Virus record (IMG/VR): IMGVR_UViG_2703718802_000010
Strand: one strand, 5' to 3'
DNA: 18,142 nt
Origin: a virus
Taxonomy: Duplodnaviria; Heunggongvirae; Uroviricota; Caudoviricetes
Part shown: one piece after another, positions 5,830 to 13,889 of the stretch
Numbering within the stretch: position 1 is the first letter of the stretch
How the letters are laid out: every line of letters begins with the position of its first letter
Notes under the pieces: model-generated
What the model saw: only the letters and a program-made list of their open reading frames with translations
The model's database searches: none
Told to the model about the DNA's origin: nothing
Position numbers and translations under genes: made by a program

Positions 5830-6414
5830 TTATTCCATAACAGGGATTGCAGGCCACTCAATATCAGGTGCAGTTGATGTATCAACACGATTCAGCAACA
5901 CCCGATACTTCTTCCAGGCTTCAAGCAACGAGGTTTCTTCCTCCGTTGCGATTTCCAGATCTGCAGCATCCTGAAGCGGGGCAATATGCTCACTGGCTAC
6001 CTGCATCAGGCTGTTTTTTGTTTCTTCCGCCTCCCGGATCCGGAACAGTTTTTCTGCTTCCGTATCCTTCACCCAGGCTGTGCCGTTCCACTTCTGAAAC
6101 TCCCCTTCCGGGGATAACCAGGTGATATTTTCCGGTAGAGGTCCGAGTTCAGAAATAAATAACGAGTCGCCGGAAGCCACGTCATAGACGGTTTTTCCCC
6201 GATGATCTTCAACGAGATGCCACGATGCCTCATCACTGTTGAAAACAGCCACGAAGCCTACCGGAATATCTGGCGGTGCAATATAGGTACTGTTTGCTGG
6301 CAGACCTGTATGAGGCGGAATATATGCGTCACCTTCACCAATAAATTCATTAGTTCCGGCCAGCAGATTATAAATTTTTATGGTCCGTGGTTGTTCACTC
6401 ATTCTGAATGCCAT
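5830..6414 (-). CDS. tfa: Tail fibre assembly protein Tfa, 194 aa
   Basis: Near-identical over its full length to my recollection of phage lambda Tfa ([24 protein letters not shown] ... [10 protein letters not shown]). Confidence 0.85.
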
Positions 6415-9266
6415 TATGCAAGCCTCACAATGTAGTTAAATGCGATGTTTTTGACGGTGTTTTCCGCGTTACCAGCAGCGTTAACGGTGATGGTGTGTCC
6501 ATGTGAGCCAATCGCAACGGAGTGCGTATGAGCACCAATACCGACAGTATGTGCATGTGCGCCTGCGCTTGCAGCAGTGCCGGACAGCGAGTGGGTATGA
6601 GCACCATCTGATGATGTCTTCCCTGCATTACGAGTCTGGCCACTACCGCTTGTTGTGCTCATAATCCCCGCGCTTAGATTTGAAATCGCGGTATAACCAT
6701 TAGGGAAAATGCTCGTGTTCGTGCCACCAAATGCACCGGAACTCTTGTGTTGGTGCGCACCGGCACTATTTGCGGTCCCGCTAATACTATGGGTATGCGC
6801 CCCGGTGTTATTCGTGGATTTGGTTCCGTAATCAAACGACGATGTGGTTTTCGTCCCCAAATCCGTACTGGATGCGCTGGCGCTGTGGGTGTGCGATTTA
6901 ATGCCGTCCTGTTCCTGAGACAATACGGCCCGACCACTGGCAGGTTTGCCCTTAATCGTCCAGCCACGCATATCAGGGATCACGCCTGACGGATAAGCGG
7001 CTGCAAGTTTCGGGTAAGCAGATTTGTCAAAAGTCTGCCCCTGCATCAGGGCATAACCAGACGGAACGGTATCTGATGGCCACGGGATTGGTGCGCCGAC
7101 TGGGTAGCTTTCTGGTGGAAGATTTTTCGAGGTATAAACTTCTGCCCAGCCTTCCTCAAAACCATAACCGTCTCTTGAAGAACGGTAGAACAGACCACCA
7201 TTTCTGTAATGCGCCTTCATCTGCAGGGTCCGGCAACTTCCGACTCCGGTATAGAAGTTAACCAGAATATAGCTGTCGCCAGAGCGGGTGACATTGTAAG
7301 CGCCTGATTCGGCATTCCAGGGAACGCCACCATCCGCATCGGCATATGTATCCGTTGCCCTTCTGGCAAAAGCAGCCACATGCGCGGCGGTTAAAGTAAT
7401 ATCTTTGGAACCATCAAATGGAACACCGGATATTTTTCTTGCAGTCTGGAGTTTTGTAGCAGTTGCAGCATTACCAGTGGTGTTCTGATTACCCGTAGTG
7501 TTTACACCTGGAAGGTTAATATTTGCAGAACCGTCGAAAACAACTCCACCGATAGATCTTGCCGTCTGCAATTTCGTGGCTGTACTTGCATTACCATTCA
7601 ATGAACCAGTTAATCCACCTGTAACAGACAACGGACCTGAAACTGTTCCTCCGGTTGTTGGCAGTGCTCCAATATCTGATGGTGTAGGTTTCTGATGTGA
7701 GCTATACATCGTATAAACAACACCATAGGTAACGCTGGAAGGCTTACTCGCTGAATATGTTGGCGAGGTATAAACAGAAACTGACGCATTTGCAGTACAA
7801 TCCCAATGGATATTTACACTCGTCGCATAATTGCCAATCTCAACGTAAATATCATATGTATCGCCGGATGTGTTGATCCAGGCGAAATTCGTTAATCCGA
7901 CGGCTGTACGCTTCCACAAAGCCCCGGTAATTCCTTTGGGGTTTCCATTGCCTGCTCGTAGAACCAGTTCTGAAATGCCTGCCTGATGTGGGGAACCGAC
8001 GTTGTAACCAGCGCCACCAATCAATGCGATGTAAACGATGGAACTCGCTTGTGGCATGGTAACCGTAGCCAGTTTGAACCACCCAGCCCCGCCAGAGAAA
8101 GACATCGTTACTGAATTTAAAGTACCAATATCTTTCGGCGTTAATGTTATATCCGCAGTCAGTGCTTTTCCGTTAACTTTTCGGTTAGATGGCACCCTGC
8201 TATTCGCATTGTCATTGGCTGCTTTAACTGCTTTTGGCGTTGCGGCCAGCGATTCACTGGTGCTATCAACAGCACTGCTAAGTTTCACAACACCTTTAGT
8301 TGTAAGGCTTGCGTCTTCCATCGCAACTGCACCGGCAATCTCTTCAGCACGATCAGCAGCAGCTTCCGCACGGGTCGCAGCGGATTCAGCAGTAGTTTTG
8401 CTCTGAGATGCCGCCGTCGCACTGCCAGCTGCCTCTGTCGCCTTCGTGGATGCTGTCGTGGCGCTGCCTTTCGCTGCTGATGCCTGTCTGCTCGCCTCAT
8501 CTTTTGAAGCAGACGCAGATGATGCCGATGACGCCGCCGAACTGGCGGACGATGCAGCTGCCATTTTTGAGGATTCTGCACTGGTTTCCGAGGCTTTCGC
8601 GTTCGTTTCGGATGTCTTCGCTGCGGATGCAGACCTCGCTGCTGCGCTGGCCTGTTCAGCGGCTTCGCCAGCCTTCGTTGTGGCTGTTGAAGCAGACGAT
8701 GCGGCGCTTTCTGCCGATTTTCCGGCGGCGGTGGCACTGGCTGAGGCCTGCCCGGCACTTGTTGACGCGGCACTGGCAGACGACGCAGCCGCTGTTTTTG
8801 AGCCTGCCGCAGCCGAGGCGCTCTGTCCCGCTGCCGTTTCAGAAGACCTGGCGTTTGTCTCAGACGTCTTTGCCGCCTTCGCGGAATTGCCTGCCGCCGT
8901 TGCCGAGGAAGCGGCACTACTGGCGCTTGATGATGCGTTCGTTTCTGATGATTTCGCTGCCTCTTTTGAGGCCGCCGCATCCCGGGCTGAGGTGGCTGCT
9001 TCTGACGCCTTCGTGGTCGCGGCGGATGCAGAAGTGGCTGCTGATTGTTGTGACGCTGCCGCATTCGTTTCTGACGTTTTCGCCGCACCGGCACTGGTAG
9101 CTGCCGCGCTTTTTGAGGACTCTGCAGCAGCAGCACTTTTTGCTGCTTCACGGGCCTTTGTCGATGCCGTTCCTGCGCTGGAAGACGCTGACTGAGCCGA
9201 CGACGCGGCCTGCCCGGCTGACGTGCTGGCGGCACGTGCTGAGCCTGCAGCATCGGTTATTACCAC
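6414..9266 (-). CDS. stf: Side tail fibre protein Stf, 5'-truncated, 950 codons
   Basis: N-terminal Ala/Ser-rich AAKTSETNA-type repeats and C-terminal HxH-rich tip ending [11 protein letters not shown] match lambda Stf. Homology begins at a position equivalent to about lambda Stf residue 135; an in-frame stop lies just upstream (9285-9287) and the GTG at 9266 has no SD, so expression is doubtful. Confidence 0.7.
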
Positions 9267-10116
9267 TTCCCGGATCGCTATACGCTATTCCGTTAAAGAT
9301 AATGGGCGGAATAATGATTTGACGGTCAAAGTTATGATCATCGCTGATGGTGACTGTAACCGTCCCGTTTGGTGTTTCCGTATTACCCCACGTACCAGCC
9401 TGTTTCGGGAATGATTTGGATACAGCTTTAACGAAGTCACCTCTGACCTGAGTCGCCTCCAGCATGCCCTTAATCGTACAGTTTTCATTTACCGTGACAT
9501 TGTTGAGCGTCCCGGCGTTCGCATTCACACTGCCACTGATATCCGCATTTTTAGCGGTCAGCTTTCCGTCCGGTGTCAGGGAAAATGCCGGTGGATTTCC
9601 ACCGCTGGTAATGGTGGGGGCCGTCAGGCGTTTCAGGAACACGTCGTTCATGAATATCTGATCGCCCTGACCAACAAACATCGGTTTTGTGTTGCCATTC
9701 GCAGGATTAACCATCGCAATCCTGTCCGCCGCCAGCAGCACCTGACTCTGCATGCCGTCAGGGGTGTTCTCAATATCCACGATGGCCTCTTTTTCCGGTA
9801 CATGCTGCACGGCGGTGATGGCATACGTGCCGTCGTCGTTCTCACGGATACTCACGCAGCGGAACAGGCGCTGGCGCAACGTCGGCAGCTTCAGCCCCCA
9901 TACGCTGTATTCAGCAACGCCGTCAGGAACACGGCTCACTTTCACCTTCACGCCGTCGGTGACGGACTGAACCTCCACGCTGACCGGACTCCCCTGCCCG
10001 TCAACCAGGCTTATCAGCGTGGTGCCGGAAGATGGCAGCGTGATTTCACGGTCGAGCGTCAGCGTCCGGGTCTGGCTGTTTACCGCCAGCACGCGCCCGC
10101 CGGTGCGGATACCCAA
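9148..10116 (-). pseudogene. J: Internal fragment of the tail tip / host-specificity protein J
   Basis: Translation [28 protein letters not shown] ... [12 protein letters not shown] ... [11 protein letters not shown] matches the lambda J C-terminal region as I recall it. It lacks the J N-terminus and most of the protein, and its last ~40 codons read out of frame into stf. Confidence 0.65.
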
Positions 10117-10334
10117 GCTGGAGTGGCGAACGTTTTACCCTTGCTGATGAGGTATTCACTGATTTCGCTGTACCACATGTGGCTGAGTGCATTCTGGGAA
10201 AGACTGCGTCTCTCGCGCCACGGTTTAAGCACCATGCGAAAGCATTTGCCGTCCTCCAGATAAGGCTGGATCTGCCGACCGATAGCGGTGAAGTTACCGC
10301 GATGCAATTTGATACCATCTTGTGGGAGGTTCAC
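10080..10334 (-). pseudogene. NinB/YbcN-family gene, 5' part only (about 72 codons), truncated by fusion to the J fragment
   Basis: MNLPQDGIKLHRGNF ... RSLSQNALSHMW carries the NinB-type RSL(D/S)QN motif. GTG start at 10334 with SD GGAGGTGA upstream. The reading frame runs into the J-fragment sequence around 10117-10125. Confidence 0.5.
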
Positions 10335-10528
10335 GCTTCACCTCCGCAGAGATCAAACGCTGGATGCAAAATATCGCAGGTGCATTTCTGCATCTGTGAA
10401 TGGAGAAGAGAGGTTGGATTGTATGTGCGCATAAACGTCCCCGTTTAGCGCAGAAGTCACCGGAGTTGTTCAGGCCCCAATGGCATGATTATGGCTGGTT
10501 GATTATTGGAAATCAAATGTGCTGAAAA

Positions 10529-11038
10529 TTAGTCTGCCAAGTCTTCCTCAGTCGCAACTGGGTAATTCCAAATATCAAAAAAAGCTATAGCCTCCTGCCA
10601 TTTGCTCCATAAGTTATCAAGTACTTGTGTAGGTTCCGTACTTTTAAAAACAGAATCAGCCGCATCACCGTTATGAACTTCCTCGTACAGTTCCATTATT
10701 AGCAGATTAACAAAGTACTGTTTCAACATTAATGCCTGATTACCTTCTTTCTGCTGGCTATCCTGCTTGATGATCTCCATCGCCCGTACTAGGCACCTGA
10801 TGATATCCGCTGCATCATTAACGCTCCATTCAGATCCGCGCTTATCTTTAGCTGATGAATTGGCTCTCTCAGCGCAAGCCTTTAAAGACTCATAAAGGTA
10901 AACTCTATTTTGTAGCTGCAGCGCTTTTTTTGACGTGTACCAACTTGCAAGCGCCGACCCCGCTGCGGCTAATGTGCCAAACGCAGAAATACCTGCTGCT
11001 ATTGCACTTAAGTCGGCACTGTCAAAGTTCCACATCAT
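10529..11038 (-). CDS. Hypothetical protein, 169 aa, with a single N-terminal hydrophobic helix
   Basis: ORF with predicted transmembrane segment LSAIAAGISAFGTLAAAGSALASWY followed by a hydrophilic domain; AT-rich upstream region. No homology recognised. Confidence 0.5.
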   Translation of the reverse strand: MMWNFDSADLSAIAAGISAFGTLAAAGSALASWYTSKKALQLQNRVYLYESLKACAERANSSAKDKRGSEWSVNDAADIIRCLVRAMEIIKQDSQQKEGNQALMLKQYFVNLLIMELYEEVHNGDAADSVFKSTEPTQVLDNLWSKWQEAIAFFDIWNYPVATEEDLAD

Positions 11039-11296
11039 CGTTACACCTTATATAAATACCCCTCAGTAATATCCAATAAGGTATGTGCACAATCAATATA
11101 ATTTTATCCGTATCGGCACATAGCGATTTGAACGCTACTGGTAATGGTATATTTTAGATTATATCGTCCAGTTTACAGCACCCGTATTTTATGAAATGGA
11201 CTCGCATATTACCCAAAAAATGCCAGCACTTCCGTCATCGTAGAATGCTGGCAGTATTTCTAACTAGTGACTTTATTGGAACAGATTCTGACGGAA

Positions 11297-11596
11297 TTAT
11301 GGTAACACTCGACTCCACTTATCATCCAGCCACGGCTGGAATTTTACATGTGCCGTTTCTCTGGCGAGGATTGCTCGCGCTCTGTTGAGTATCTGGGGAT
11401 ATTCTTGCTCGATAGAAGTAAAGCGGCCGGCTTCGCGGTGCTCCGCAACCTGAAGTAGTGGAGTAACGTTCTGGCAGGCAGTTAACATCACATCACCTGC
11501 TCGCCATAACCAAGCACGTGCACAAAGTTTGTTATCAGTGAATTGTTTTGTGATTGGGTATTGTTGAACTGCTAGAACGAGAACGCCAGCATCCAT
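11297..11596 (-). CDS. Hypothetical protein, 99 aa (possibly a gene remnant)
   Basis: ATG-initiated ORF with a weak SD; no recognisable domain. Confidence 0.3.
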   Translation of the reverse strand: MDAGVLVLAVQQYPITKQFTDNKLCARAWLWRAGDVMLTACQNVTPLLQVAEHREAGRFTSIEQEYPQILNRARAILARETAHVKFQPWLDDKWSRVLP

Positions 11597-11707
11597 TGGC
11601 AGTCCCTATAGTAAAACCATAGCTCAGGACGCTTCGTTCAGGATAGATAATTTTATTGTACTTACCTAACTTTCTTACTATAGCACGGTTGAAAAAGTGA
11701 TTATTAC

Positions 11708-13234
11708 TCAAAAATAAACCTCACCATCAACCATATATTTGAGAGTACTTATCGCCTGCTGGGCGGATATTGTTTTCATTAAAGGATAGTGTTTAAAAAC
11801 AATGCCATTCATAAAATAGATATCACAGGTTTTATTATCTGTATTGATTATGATTTTTTCGAATGTTTTATAGGCAAGTGTACGACATAGCTCTCGCCCA
11901 TTTTTACTGGTTAAGTCAATAGCATGAAAATCACCAAGTGAACTCACCGCTTTACTCTTCAAAGTTTTTAATGATACAGAAGCCCTTCGTAATTCCTTAT
12001 CTAATACTCTGATTTTTTCTGCTATAGCGGTAACTTCAGGCGCAACAGATAATGCAGCAATTAAATTATTAATTTTCATCTGGAGCTCAATAATTTTCAA
12101 CTCTAAAGTTTCATTAGCATCTTTCTTGTTTTCAACTGGTTGGATTTTACTACAATTAAAAAGCAACTCATTAATGATATTATAATCAACCAAATCTCTC
12201 TTTATTGATGGCCTGTCACATCGATGCAGTCTTCTCATCGGACAAACATAATAGCCATGCAAACTTCCAGATACCGCATGAACAATCATGGTATTACCAC
12301 AAGCCTCGCACTTCATAACTGTTCGAAGTAGATTTATCAACATAGGATTTTTGCTACTATTGCTAATACCAAAAGGTGCCAACCGAATTTCCTGCACAGC
12401 GTAAAACAAATCATCTGATATGACTCTGGGATAATAGCCAGCGATTTCACTTATTCCTTTACCTCTTGCACGATATGAAGGTACGCATATACCTATCAGA
12501 GCTTTATTCGCTAATAATTTTTCAATTACAGAAGGTCCCCATGCACTTTCTTTTCCTGAGAAATTCTTTACAGCATGATCATTTAAATACTTGGCTATTG
12601 CATTCAATGAGCGCCTTTCCATCCTGAGTTTAAAAATTAGCTCAATAGTTTTCACCCTGTCGGGGTCTGGAACAAAAGCCGTTCTTTTGTCATCCAATGA
12701 GAGCCATCTCGGACAAGACGCCGTCATAATCGTGCCTGACTCCAGTGCATCCTGCCGTTTTTTCTTCCATGATAATTTAACCCGACTTGACTTTATCTCG
12801 CTTTCTTCATTTGCCCTTTGTGCTATAAGTATGGCTTTTATTAATGAATATGGCTCATTCAATGAGTCAATATTATAGACTGTATTATCGCAAAGAGTTA
12901 TAACATCAATACCGTGATTCAAAATCAATTTCAGACGCTCAATCGCCTCACCGACTTTTTCTCTTGAAAGTCTGTCCAGACTTTCAACTAACAATGTAGT
13001 CCCTGGCAATATATAACCATGTTCTATAGCATCTAAAAATTCCGAAAAAGCTCCTGATTGTGCATGCTTTCCATTGAATGCGCTTAACCCCAAATCTTCA
13101 TACGTTACGGTATCAAGGTAATAATCACTATTTACCTTTAGCCATTCAGTAATAAGCCTTCTCTGGCGGTTTAATGAATCACCAGACATCTGACTTGGTG
13201 ATGAAAATCGCATATATGCTATGGCTTTTTTCAT
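11708..13234 (-). CDS. ybcK: Large serine recombinase (resolvase catalytic domain, recombinase domain, zinc ribbon), YbcK-like, 508 aa
   Basis: N-terminal AIAYMRFSSPSQ ... SLNRQ is a serine-recombinase catalytic motif; C-terminal Cys cluster (CEACGNT ... CPMRRLHRC). Length and adjacency to emrE match my recollection of DLP12 YbcK. Confidence 0.7.
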   Translation of the reverse strand: MKKAIAYMRFSSPSQMSGDSLNRQRRLITEWLKVNSDYYLDTVTYEDLGLSAFNGKHAQSGAFSEFLDAIEHGYILPGTTLLVESLDRLSREKVGEAIERLKLILNHGIDVITLCDNTVYNIDSLNEPYSLIKAILIAQRANEESEIKSSRVKLSWKKKRQDALESGTIMTASCPRWLSLDDKRTAFVPDPDRVKTIELIFKLRMERRSLNAIAKYLNDHAVKNFSGKESAWGPSVIEKLLANKALIGICVPSYRARGKGISEIAGYYPRVISDDLFYAVQEIRLAPFGISNSSKNPMLINLLRTVMKCEACGNTMIVHAVSGSLHGYYVCPMRRLHRCDRPSIKRDLVDYNIINELLFNCSKIQPVENKKDANETLELKIIELQMKINNLIAALSVAPEVTAIAEKIRVLDKELRRASVSLKTLKSKAVSSLGDFHAIDLTSKNGRELCRTLAYKTFEKIIINTDNKTCDIYFMNGIVFKHYPLMKTISAQQAISTLKYMVDGEVYF

Positions 13235-13489
13235 GGTGACACCTGCTAAAGTATGCTTTTATAAACCTTAGTGGTGAGATATGATTTTTGTTTAATTTTT
13301 ATTTAAAAAGACAATTAAGGTCACATTATCTTGAATATACAACAATAATCGTATTGCAATTTTCTTACACCATAATCTTGAAAGCACAAAAGAATGAATA
13401 AAAACTAAAGACATTAACAAAAAGCATAAAACGAGGCCCATATAAATATACGAGCCTCCATATTTTAGTCGTTTAAAAACAAATTATTT

Positions 13490-13822
13490 TTAATGTGGTG
13501 TGCTTCGTGACAATAAATTAATAACCAACACACCGGCACAAATCAACATCATGCCTATAATGGCTGGCAGGTCCAACCGTTGGCCGAAAAATCCCCATGA
13601 TAGTAAGCTAATCAGGACAATACCGACTCCTGACCAGATAGCATAAGCAATCCCTGTAGGAATATAAGCCAGCGTCTGAGCTAATAACCAGAATGATGCA
13701 CAATAACAAATAATTGTACCAACAGATGGCCATAACCGTGTAAAACCTTCTGAAAACTTCATTAAGGTTGTACCAATGACCTCTGCAAGTATTGCACCAC
13801 CAAGATAAATATAAGGATTCAT
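13490..13822 (-). CDS. emrE: SMR-family multidrug efflux protein EmrE, 110 aa
   Basis: MNPYIYLGGAILAEVIGTTLMKFSEGFTRLWPSVGTIICYCASFWLLAQTL ... LSRSTPH matches EmrE. The longer 128-aa track ORF has an upstream in-frame extension that I reject in favour of the MNPYIYLGG start. Confidence 0.9.
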   Translation of the reverse strand: MNPYIYLGGAILAEVIGTTLMKFSEGFTRLWPSVGTIICYCASFWLLAQTLAYIPTGIAYAIWSGVGIVLISLLSWGFFGQRLDLPAIIGMMLICAGVLVINLLSRSTPH

Positions 13823-13889
13823 AGCATATTCTTTCCTGTTCAAACTGGAGAGAATTGTACTACAGTTTGAACTCAACTCACCTGTTTCA

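Follow-up and report, generated by a model that had tools for sequence, protein, structure and literature searches.

The window analyzed here is an 18,142-nucleotide stretch of viral DNA (IMG/VR record IMGVR_UViG_2703718802_000010; Caudoviricetes) that carries two minus-strand open reading frames (ORFs), both starting with ATG, between a serine recombinase gene and a NinB-like gene. We call the 169-aa frame at 10529-11038 ORF-A and the 99-aa frame at 11297-11596 ORF-B. Comparison with other genomes shows this region to be a DLP12-type lambdoid prophage remnant of E. coli, and the interval to be a mosaic joint that holds two unrelated things. By its genomic pattern, ORF-A is a self-contained accessory cassette (moron) in a hypervariable slot just upstream of ylcH-ninB; by homology, ORF-B is what survives, at the 3’ end, of a Bro-N + P22_AR_C (Roi/Rha/Ant-like) gene that has lost its 5’ half. 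An earlier sequence-only reading had described two ORFs with these coordinates and this placement, which our analysis bears out, and had taken both as unknown genes in a variable cargo slot. A remnant beside a cassette, together with the mechanism proposed below, is our best explanation of the locus as a whole, and one that we consider probable while allowing for substantial doubt.

The 1451 bp from 10300 to 11750 are 100% identical to chromosomes of E. coli ML35, RM10410 and others, in which this stretch lies within a lambdoid prophage remnant beside emrE and ybcK. At least 80% of the stretch is held by 176 of 5426 complete E. coli genomes; the flanks alone are found in 2957. RefSeq annotates a coding sequence for each frame (WP_000990013.1, ‘hypothetical’, for ORF-A; WP_029785662.1 for ORF-B), and we take both to be real genes or gene fragments, not chance ORFs, because homologues exist across many genomes and phages. 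On one side of the pair is ybcK, the gene of a large serine recombinase (domains Resolvase, Recombinase and Zn_ribbon_recom); on the other is NinB/YbcN, cut at ~10110. Homology between K-12 and the window stops at 11699, 9 bp past the ybcK stop codon, and restarts at 10504, and the exchanged segment is therefore 10505-11698. In the K-12 prophage DLP12, the equivalent position between ybcK and ylcH-ybcN does hold ybcL and ybcM, as the earlier reading had it.

The notion of a variable cargo slot is strongly supported. In sampled E. coli loci that share its flanks, the interval between the P22_AR_C gene and ylcH-ybcN has eight different occupants: ORF-A; ybcL plus ybcM; an 83-aa protein; a HEPN protein plus a 133-aa protein; a 309-aa protein; a 58-aa plus a 210-aa protein; a 260-aa protein; and a 118-aa protein. 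The breakpoints are sharp (window ~11280-11307 and 10516-10529), the constant flanks lie at window 11297-11330 and 10440-10516, and homology with every alternative occupant restarts at window 10516-10529. The 309-aa occupant, found in E. coli AR Bank #0349 (NZ_CP041996.1; locus L014, 4023-4952), is a full-length homologue of BstA (PADLOC E 3.6e-121), an experimentally proven prophage abortive-infection protein whose location downstream of the cI repressor is strikingly conserved (PMC8585504). Because the usual site is downstream of cI, the copy in this pre-ninB slot occupies a different position. The HEPN occupant, from O157/O26, matches the PADLOC candidate PDC-M28A (E 1.8e-7). One slot farther upstream, flanked by ren and the bro gene, PhiR26_1 and FDAARGOS_1290 carry PD-lambda-1 (E 1.9e-198); PhiR26_1 carries both PD-lambda-1 and ORF-A. 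The slot is thus a genuine hotspot that includes defense genes, and it also holds the K-12 cargo ybcL (a periplasmic protein) and ybcM (an AraC-type regulator), which have no link to defense. In the literature on lambdoid and ninB hotspots and on ybcK, ybcL and ybcM, we found no description of this slot.

All of the closer ORF-A relatives examined are the last gene before NinB, or before DUF1367 in the equivalent place, and lie on the same strand as the replication genes. Their upstream neighbor varies (Bro-N/P22_AR_C, DUF551 proteins, unknowns), and more distant members follow gene N in the pL operon or adjoin pyocin/colicin genes in prophage accessory regions. These shifting neighbors and locations mark ORF-A as mobile cargo that is partnered with neither the Bro-N/P22_AR_C gene nor NinB. 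A two-gene system of ORF-A and Bro-N/P22_AR_C was considered and set aside, as the upstream neighbor differs in other genera, and a functional linkage to NinB was likewise rejected on the distant members in the pL operon or beside bacteriocin genes.

A possible route of exchange is suggested by an 89-109-bp piece of the ylcH leader (window 10364-10472). PhiR26_1, an O157:H7 prophage and FDAARGOS_1290 have a second copy of it, 93-94% identical, upstream of the Bro-N/P22_AR_C gene (L003 3653-3741; L013 2679-2787; L015 2699-2787). Direct repeats thus enclose the bro gene together with the variable slot, and homologous recombination could plausibly use them to exchange cassettes.

ORF-B had been listed as unknown cargo, and here the sequence-only reading has to be corrected. 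Its residues 15-85 match positions 3-73 of the 73-position Pfam profile P22_AR_C (PF10548; E 9e-13; 48.6 bits against a gathering cut-off of 22.4). In PHROG, it matches phrog_7640 and the C-terminal parts of ‘anti-repressor Ant’ families, and its RefSeq name is ‘P22AR C-terminal domain-containing protein’. Residues 5-99 are 83-86% identical to the C-terminus of the 202-aa and 249-aa ‘Rha’ proteins of the complete phages PhiR26_1 and PhiR5_1, both of which consist of Bro-N plus P22_AR_C. In ORF-B, Pfam detected P22_AR_C alone and no Bro-N (or KilA-N/ANT) domain, and just 111 bp separate the frame from the ybcK stop codon. Without Bro-N, ORF-B is not a full antirepressor-like protein, though its P22_AR_C domain is a true one. 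A search of PADLOC-DB v2 defense models with ORF-B returned no families at E ≤ 1.

The position of the break explains the structure of this fragment. In the DNA alignment and by blastn, homology to full-length bro/P22_AR_C genes begins at window ~11583, at the boundary between the Bro-N and P22_AR_C domains; farther upstream, the window matches the 3’ flank of ybcK. A junction segment on the minus strand (11584-11707, delimited by blastn) runs from the ybcK stop codon to the start of bro homology and gives ORF-B its new ATG. The identical junction, with the N-terminus MDAGVLVLAVQQ, is present in phage Turner, SE11, AR Bank #0349, STEC384, M37H and DFL.5. Given that Turner and many E. coli share it, the junction reflects one old event and no recent strain accident. 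The emrE-ylcJ-ybcK block thus took the place of the 5’ half of an antirepressor-like gene and left P22_AR_C behind a newly made ATG. Like the Roi, Ant and ‘Rha’ proteins (PF02498 + PF10548), ORF-B lies between the replication genes and ninB, a region that HK022 Roi presumably occupies as well; it differs from these proteins in lacking Bro-N, in drawing its start codon from the ybcK junction and in missing its last 8 residues.

It is possible, though in our view doubtful, that ORF-B is a functional stand-alone P22_AR_C protein, for example a modulator that binds the partner of the full-length Bro-N/P22_AR_C proteins of co-resident prophages. Truncated copies that share the junction have diverged at synonymous sites (dS 0.2-0.35), with a ratio of non-synonymous to synonymous divergence (dN/dS) of 0.16-0.38. 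These low values leave room for a function of the domain on its own, but recombination with full-length alleles could mimic them. The truncated form is retained in the infective phage Turner and has a PHROG to itself (phrog_7640), ORF-B-like DNA, truncated or full length, is present in 845 of the 5426 E. coli genomes (in 669 genomes over 80% or more of the query), and a weak Shine-Dalgarno-like AGGGA stands 6 nt before the ATG. Against a function, a TAT-to-TAA change in the window copy drops the last 8 codons present in relatives, and the private changes of this copy are otherwise 5 non-synonymous and 3 synonymous. The excess of private non-synonymous changes and the nonsense change together suggest that constraint on the window copy is relaxed. 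A generic scan found no convincing promoter in the 111 bp after the ybcK stop codon.

A separate observation concerns the parent gene of ORF-B. In phages 4A7, D2, 1W, 3W, Lambda_4C10 and Perceval, an unannotated stretch located at ~41.5 kb shows similarity to residues 1-45 of ORF-B alone (67% identity), which suggests that these lambda-like phages hold a further, even shorter remnant of that gene.

ORF-A (10529-11038, minus strand) is an orphan lambdoid-prophage accessory protein. Its residues 1-169 align with positions 1-169 of the 169-position hidden Markov model of phrog_1779 (E 1.2e-102), a family with no annotated function. The description of ORF-A as unrecognizable holds for Pfam, NCBIfam and PADLOC, though the protein does fall into this PHROG; for ORF-B, as shown above, it does not hold. 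ORF-A is present in 181 of the 5426 E. coli genomes (~3%), including O104:H4 2011C-3493, and is always annotated there as ‘hypothetical’; 180 of these 181 have a match to 80% or more of the gene. Copies in complete phages are 98.8% (PhiR26_1) and 96.5% (PhiR5_1) identical to ORF-A, and the laboratory hosts named in the two phage records are K-12 MG1655 and E. coli C. The family is small: clustering at 90% identity gives 15 groups, and a profile search run exhaustively over 1.84 billion protein representatives found only 35 clusters, almost all of 150-180 aa, with homologues that reach down to ~20% identity while preserving length. All were found in lambdoid prophage accessory regions. Pairs with saturated synonymous sites have a dN of 0.25-0.44. 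We take ORF-A, from this pattern of conservation, to be a real gene under selection. The ratio dN/dS was tried and proved uninformative for ORF-A, as close pairs are only 3-9 substitutions apart and distant pairs are saturated at synonymous sites.

AlphaFold2 models ORF-A as all-helical (predicted local distance difference test, pLDDT, ~71), with a long helix beginning in the hydrophobic N-terminal part and a bundle after it. The family conserves a pattern of small residues along the first helix (a face formed in ORF-A by A15, S18, A29 and S32), an A-x-R-A-N motif, W71, W147 and an FF pair. An acidic tail, (T/R)-D-(E/A)-D-L-x-D, closes about two-thirds of the members; in ORF-A it reads T-E-E-D-L-A-D, of the form T-x-E-D-L-x-D. 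Foldseek returned no informative fold match for the model. An assignment as a HEPN toxin was examined and rejected: Foldseek values were only E 0.5-3.5, the R-x(4-6)-H motif is absent, and the sole histidine, H122, is not conserved and has no arginine 4-6 residues ahead of it.

The single N-terminal transmembrane helix proposed for ORF-A is, on our analysis, a probable membrane anchor. Residues 12-30 form a hydrophobic segment preceded by D,D and followed by KK..R. Its 19-residue Kyte-Doolittle mean is 1.59 in the window copy, where the classic membrane threshold is ~1.6; in 12 relatives it reaches 1.7-2.3. In one relative, P0042, three additional hydrophobic helices are fused ahead of the N-terminal one. 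We accept the anchor as probable, with the N-terminus out and the C-terminus in, because of the hydrophobicity of the relatives, the flanking charges and the P0042 fusion.

Judged by sequence, ORF-A appears to come with regulatory DNA of its own. A sigma-70-like motif on the minus strand (11068-11096) consists of a -35 element TTGATT (11096-11091), a 17-nt spacer and a -10 element GATATT (11073-11068), 29 nt ahead of the ATG, with an A/T tract upstream of the -35. The pattern TTGnnn-17-GATATT recurs 26-30 nt ahead of the start codon in six diverged loci, in which the proteins are 51-75% identical to ORF-A and the surrounding non-coding DNA has diverged; a relative that is only 22% identical has the same motif with an 18-nt spacer. 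Conservation of the two hexamers is 0.89 and 1.00, compared with 0.56-0.69 in the spacer and flanks. In silico, ORF-A thus appears to carry its own conserved sigma-70-type promoter, a possibility raised earlier for both genes; for ORF-B we found no comparable evidence. The motif was not listed by our generic promoter scan because 8 of 12 positions match and the scan threshold is 9. An inverted repeat, ATACC(C)...(G)GGTAT, brackets the -10 element; in one locus it extends to 9 bp, and it may act as an operator. Between ORF-B and ORF-A, RNA folding identified an intrinsic-terminator-like hairpin on the minus strand (11215-11253) with a 10-bp stem followed by UUUUUU (-16.6 kcal/mol, z = -3.3; 1 of 200 shuffles was equally stable).

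Two other candidate elements in this region were discarded. A LexA box at the inverted repeat does not fit the CTG-N10-CAG spacing when checked by eye, and a hairpin that would mask the Shine-Dalgarno sequence in read-through transcripts of ORF-A has a z of only -1.4 and a pairing that is not conserved elsewhere. An Rfam search of 9900-11900 on both strands returned only a chance snoRNA match (E 3.8).

In the mechanism that we favor, ORF-A would be a single-pass inner-membrane protein with its N-terminus outside and its helical domain and acidic tail in the cytoplasm. In the lysogen its own promoter would drive expression, to which read-through from pR would add during lytic growth. It would act in conflict between phages, as a membrane-anchored sensor/effector of superinfection exclusion or abortive infection. 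Several known systems offer points of comparison. In AR Bank #0349 a BstA homologue occupies exactly the same slot, from the P22_AR_C remnant to ylcH-ybcN, and both genes are single-gene cargo with their own upstream non-coding region; BstA, however, has no sequence or fold similarity to ORF-A, is 309 aa long with helix-turn-helix-like regions and is not membrane-anchored. HK97 gp15, P22 SieA, SieB of lambda and P22, and lambda RexB are membrane-located superinfection-exclusion morons. Like ORF-A, as predicted here, these are small prophage-encoded inner-membrane proteins from accessory cassettes, but searches of PADLOC, Pfam and functionally annotated PHROGs detected no homology between them and ORF-A. 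One distant ORF-A relative sits directly downstream of gene N, which we take to be the position of sieB in lambda and P22.

Morons of the HK97/HK022 type are promoter-gene-terminator units that are present in one phage and absent from its relative. ORF-A shares with them presence or absence with sharp borders; it has a conserved promoter-like motif and an upstream terminator-like hairpin, and its region is also lower in G+C (0.40-0.48, compared with 0.6 in the adjacent tail genes). It differs in that it is co-oriented with the surrounding operon and has no detected downstream terminator. The ybcL and ybcM genes of K-12 DLP12 fill the same ybcK-ylcH interval with unrelated proteins, and K-12, unlike the window, has lost the P22_AR_C remnant.

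What ORF-A does is less certain than what kind of element it is. Judged by location and architecture only, phage-phage conflict is the single most likely class of role, because the hotspot context coincides with a small, probably membrane-anchored protein, a single-gene cassette and predicted regulated expression; we hold this assignment tentatively, and regard ORF-A as a reasonable but ordinary defense-gene candidate, plausible from its location. A more specific proposal would make the ORF-A family (phrog_1779, ~35 clusters) a previously unrecognized single-gene anti-phage system of lambdoid prophages. Such a system would have its own operator-controlled promoter, its membrane-anchored sensor/effector would respond to an infecting phage by blocking DNA entry or collapsing the membrane, and the C-terminal D-E-D-L-x-D tail would act as an interaction or autoinhibition element. 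We think this proposal doubtful.

A number of results weigh against a role in defense. No homology, fold match or phenotype directly backs any reading of ORF-A function: Pfam and NCBIfam gave no matches, none of the 5027 models of PADLOC-DB v2 matched at E ≤ 1 (proteins from neighboring cargo, which served as positive controls, matched BstA and PD-Lambda-1 strongly), no conserved catalytic motif is visible in the family alignment, and literature searches by accession, phage name and PHROG identifier found nothing relevant. Location in the slot is weak evidence for defense because ybcL and ybcM, which are not defense genes, share it. The N-terminal helix is of borderline hydrophobicity in the window copy, its summed Hessa-scale values come to +2.7 kcal/mol (a position-independent sum), and AlphaFold2 pLDDT falls below 50 there. 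The promoter is a sequence motif alone, below the threshold of the generic scan, so that its activity and expression in the lysogen are predictions, and the same scan found no terminator downstream of ORF-A. Finally, a role in the lytic cycle is equally natural because ORF-A is co-oriented with the early-right operon.

On that alternative, ORF-A would be a delayed-early accessory gene, expressed mainly by read-through from pR under N antitermination, that acts on a host membrane or protein in favor of phage replication or recombination and gives the lysogen no protection; it might, for example, serve as a membrane tether or use the acidic tail to bind and inhibit a host factor. In nearly all loci ORF-A has the orientation of the replication and nin genes and comes as the last gene before NinB/DUF1367. 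One distant relative is placed in the pL operon, directly after N, and at non-E. coli loci the upstream gap is just 80-108 nt, with no upstream terminator identified there. However, the gene is dispensable, as most related phages lack it and have other cargo instead; it keeps a conserved promoter of its own, which a gene internal to an operon would not need; and it is tied to no type of replication module, occurring alike with O/P, DnaB and IstB/DnaT. We consider this lytic role unlikely. Lysogenic conversion unrelated to defense, through envelope, stress or colonization traits, would be in keeping with YbcL and YbcM in the K-12 slot, with the moron architecture and promoter of ORF-A and with its presence in pathogenic lineages such as O104:H4 2011C-3493. 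Yet there is no export signal for the bulk of the protein, whose charges predict a cytoplasmic C-terminal domain, Pfam, NCBIfam and fold searches revealed no similarity to known virulence or fitness factors, and other slot-mates and neighbors are defense genes; this explanation seems to us improbable. We accordingly rank phage conflict ahead of a lytic-cycle accessory role, and that role ahead of other forms of lysogenic conversion. A last alternative is that a defective prophage has left both ORFs as decaying sequence without function. It draws on the heavily deleted state of the window prophage, where ninB breaks off at ~10110 and runs into tail-gene fragments and where identical genomes have a partial P, and on the premature stop in the ORF-B fragment. 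For ORF-A, decay is already largely refuted by its near identity to copies in the complete phages PhiR26_1 and PhiR5_1, its match over 80% or more of its length in 180 of 181 carrier genomes and its conservation across 35 sequence clusters, and as an account of both frames it is very improbable.

The value of the finding is a well-delimited slot and a testable candidate. Upstream of ylcH-ninB, in DLP12-type and other lambdoid prophages, proven defense (BstA) alternates with uncharacterized genes, and no function is known for at least five of the occupants, namely ORF-A, the proteins of 83, 118 and 260 aa, and the 58+210-aa pair. This mix yields a short, testable list of candidate phage-defense or lysogenic-conversion genes. 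ORF-A is the easiest of them to test, being a single gene with a conserved promoter motif that is carried by two complete phages and ~3% of complete E. coli genomes, among them the O104:H4 outbreak lineage. The annotation of the second ‘unknown ORF’ should be corrected to that of a gene fragment and not cargo. ORF-A itself is ordinary moron-type cargo, and an uncharacterized gene in a prophage hotspot will not surprise a specialist. If it does function in defense, it would add one more small family to a long list, which is useful and leaves concepts unchanged.

The constant DNA on the right of the slot has features of its own. At the slot boundary, where the ylcH-ninB leader begins, our scan found a promoter-like TTGATT-17-CATAAT (10488-10516, minus strand) that is conserved in loci L006 and L007. 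It is followed, within 10420-10516 on the minus strand, by two hairpins in which the stems vary and stay paired and the loops are conserved (CCUGAACAA and GGGA). This leader folds at -22.9 kcal/mol (z -2.4) and has no Rfam match; the hairpins could be a leader, a small RNA or a processing/antitermination signal of the nin operon. Next in this constant flank is a ylcH-like 33-aa ORF (10333-10434, minus strand), annotated as WP_072097297.1 in identical genomes and matched by K-12 ylcH at the equivalent place.

Beyond it lies the 5’ fragment of ninB/ybcN (10080-10334, minus strand), for which the NinB Pfam match is weak and partial. By blastn, homology to the K-12 and phage ninB regions stops at window 10110, where tail-gene fragments start; at this place, RefSeq shows partial pseudogenes in identical genomes. 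The cut ninB is fused straight to fragments of tail-tip and tail-fiber genes (~9148-10116), and the nin-Q-lysis-head region of the window prophage is wholly deleted. The RefSeq annotation of the identical genomes also gives the replication gene P as partial.

On the other side of the slot, the block formed by emrE (SMR multidrug efflux), ylcJ and the serine recombinase gene ybcK is usually regarded as belonging to the cryptic prophage DLP12. The arrangement emrE-ylcJ-ybcK of window 11708-13876 is the same in phage Turner (PP925837.1, 1774-4324), an infective lambdoid phage isolated from water. Because an infective phage carries the block, emrE can be regarded as mobile phage cargo.

Farther along, a 950-aa tail-fiber-like ORF (6414-9266, minus strand) has an Ala/Ser/Thr-rich, low-complexity N-terminal third of ~60% G+C. 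This low-complexity region yields long spurious ORFs in other frames or on the opposite strand, at 8285-9253, 8408-9100 and 8446-9195.

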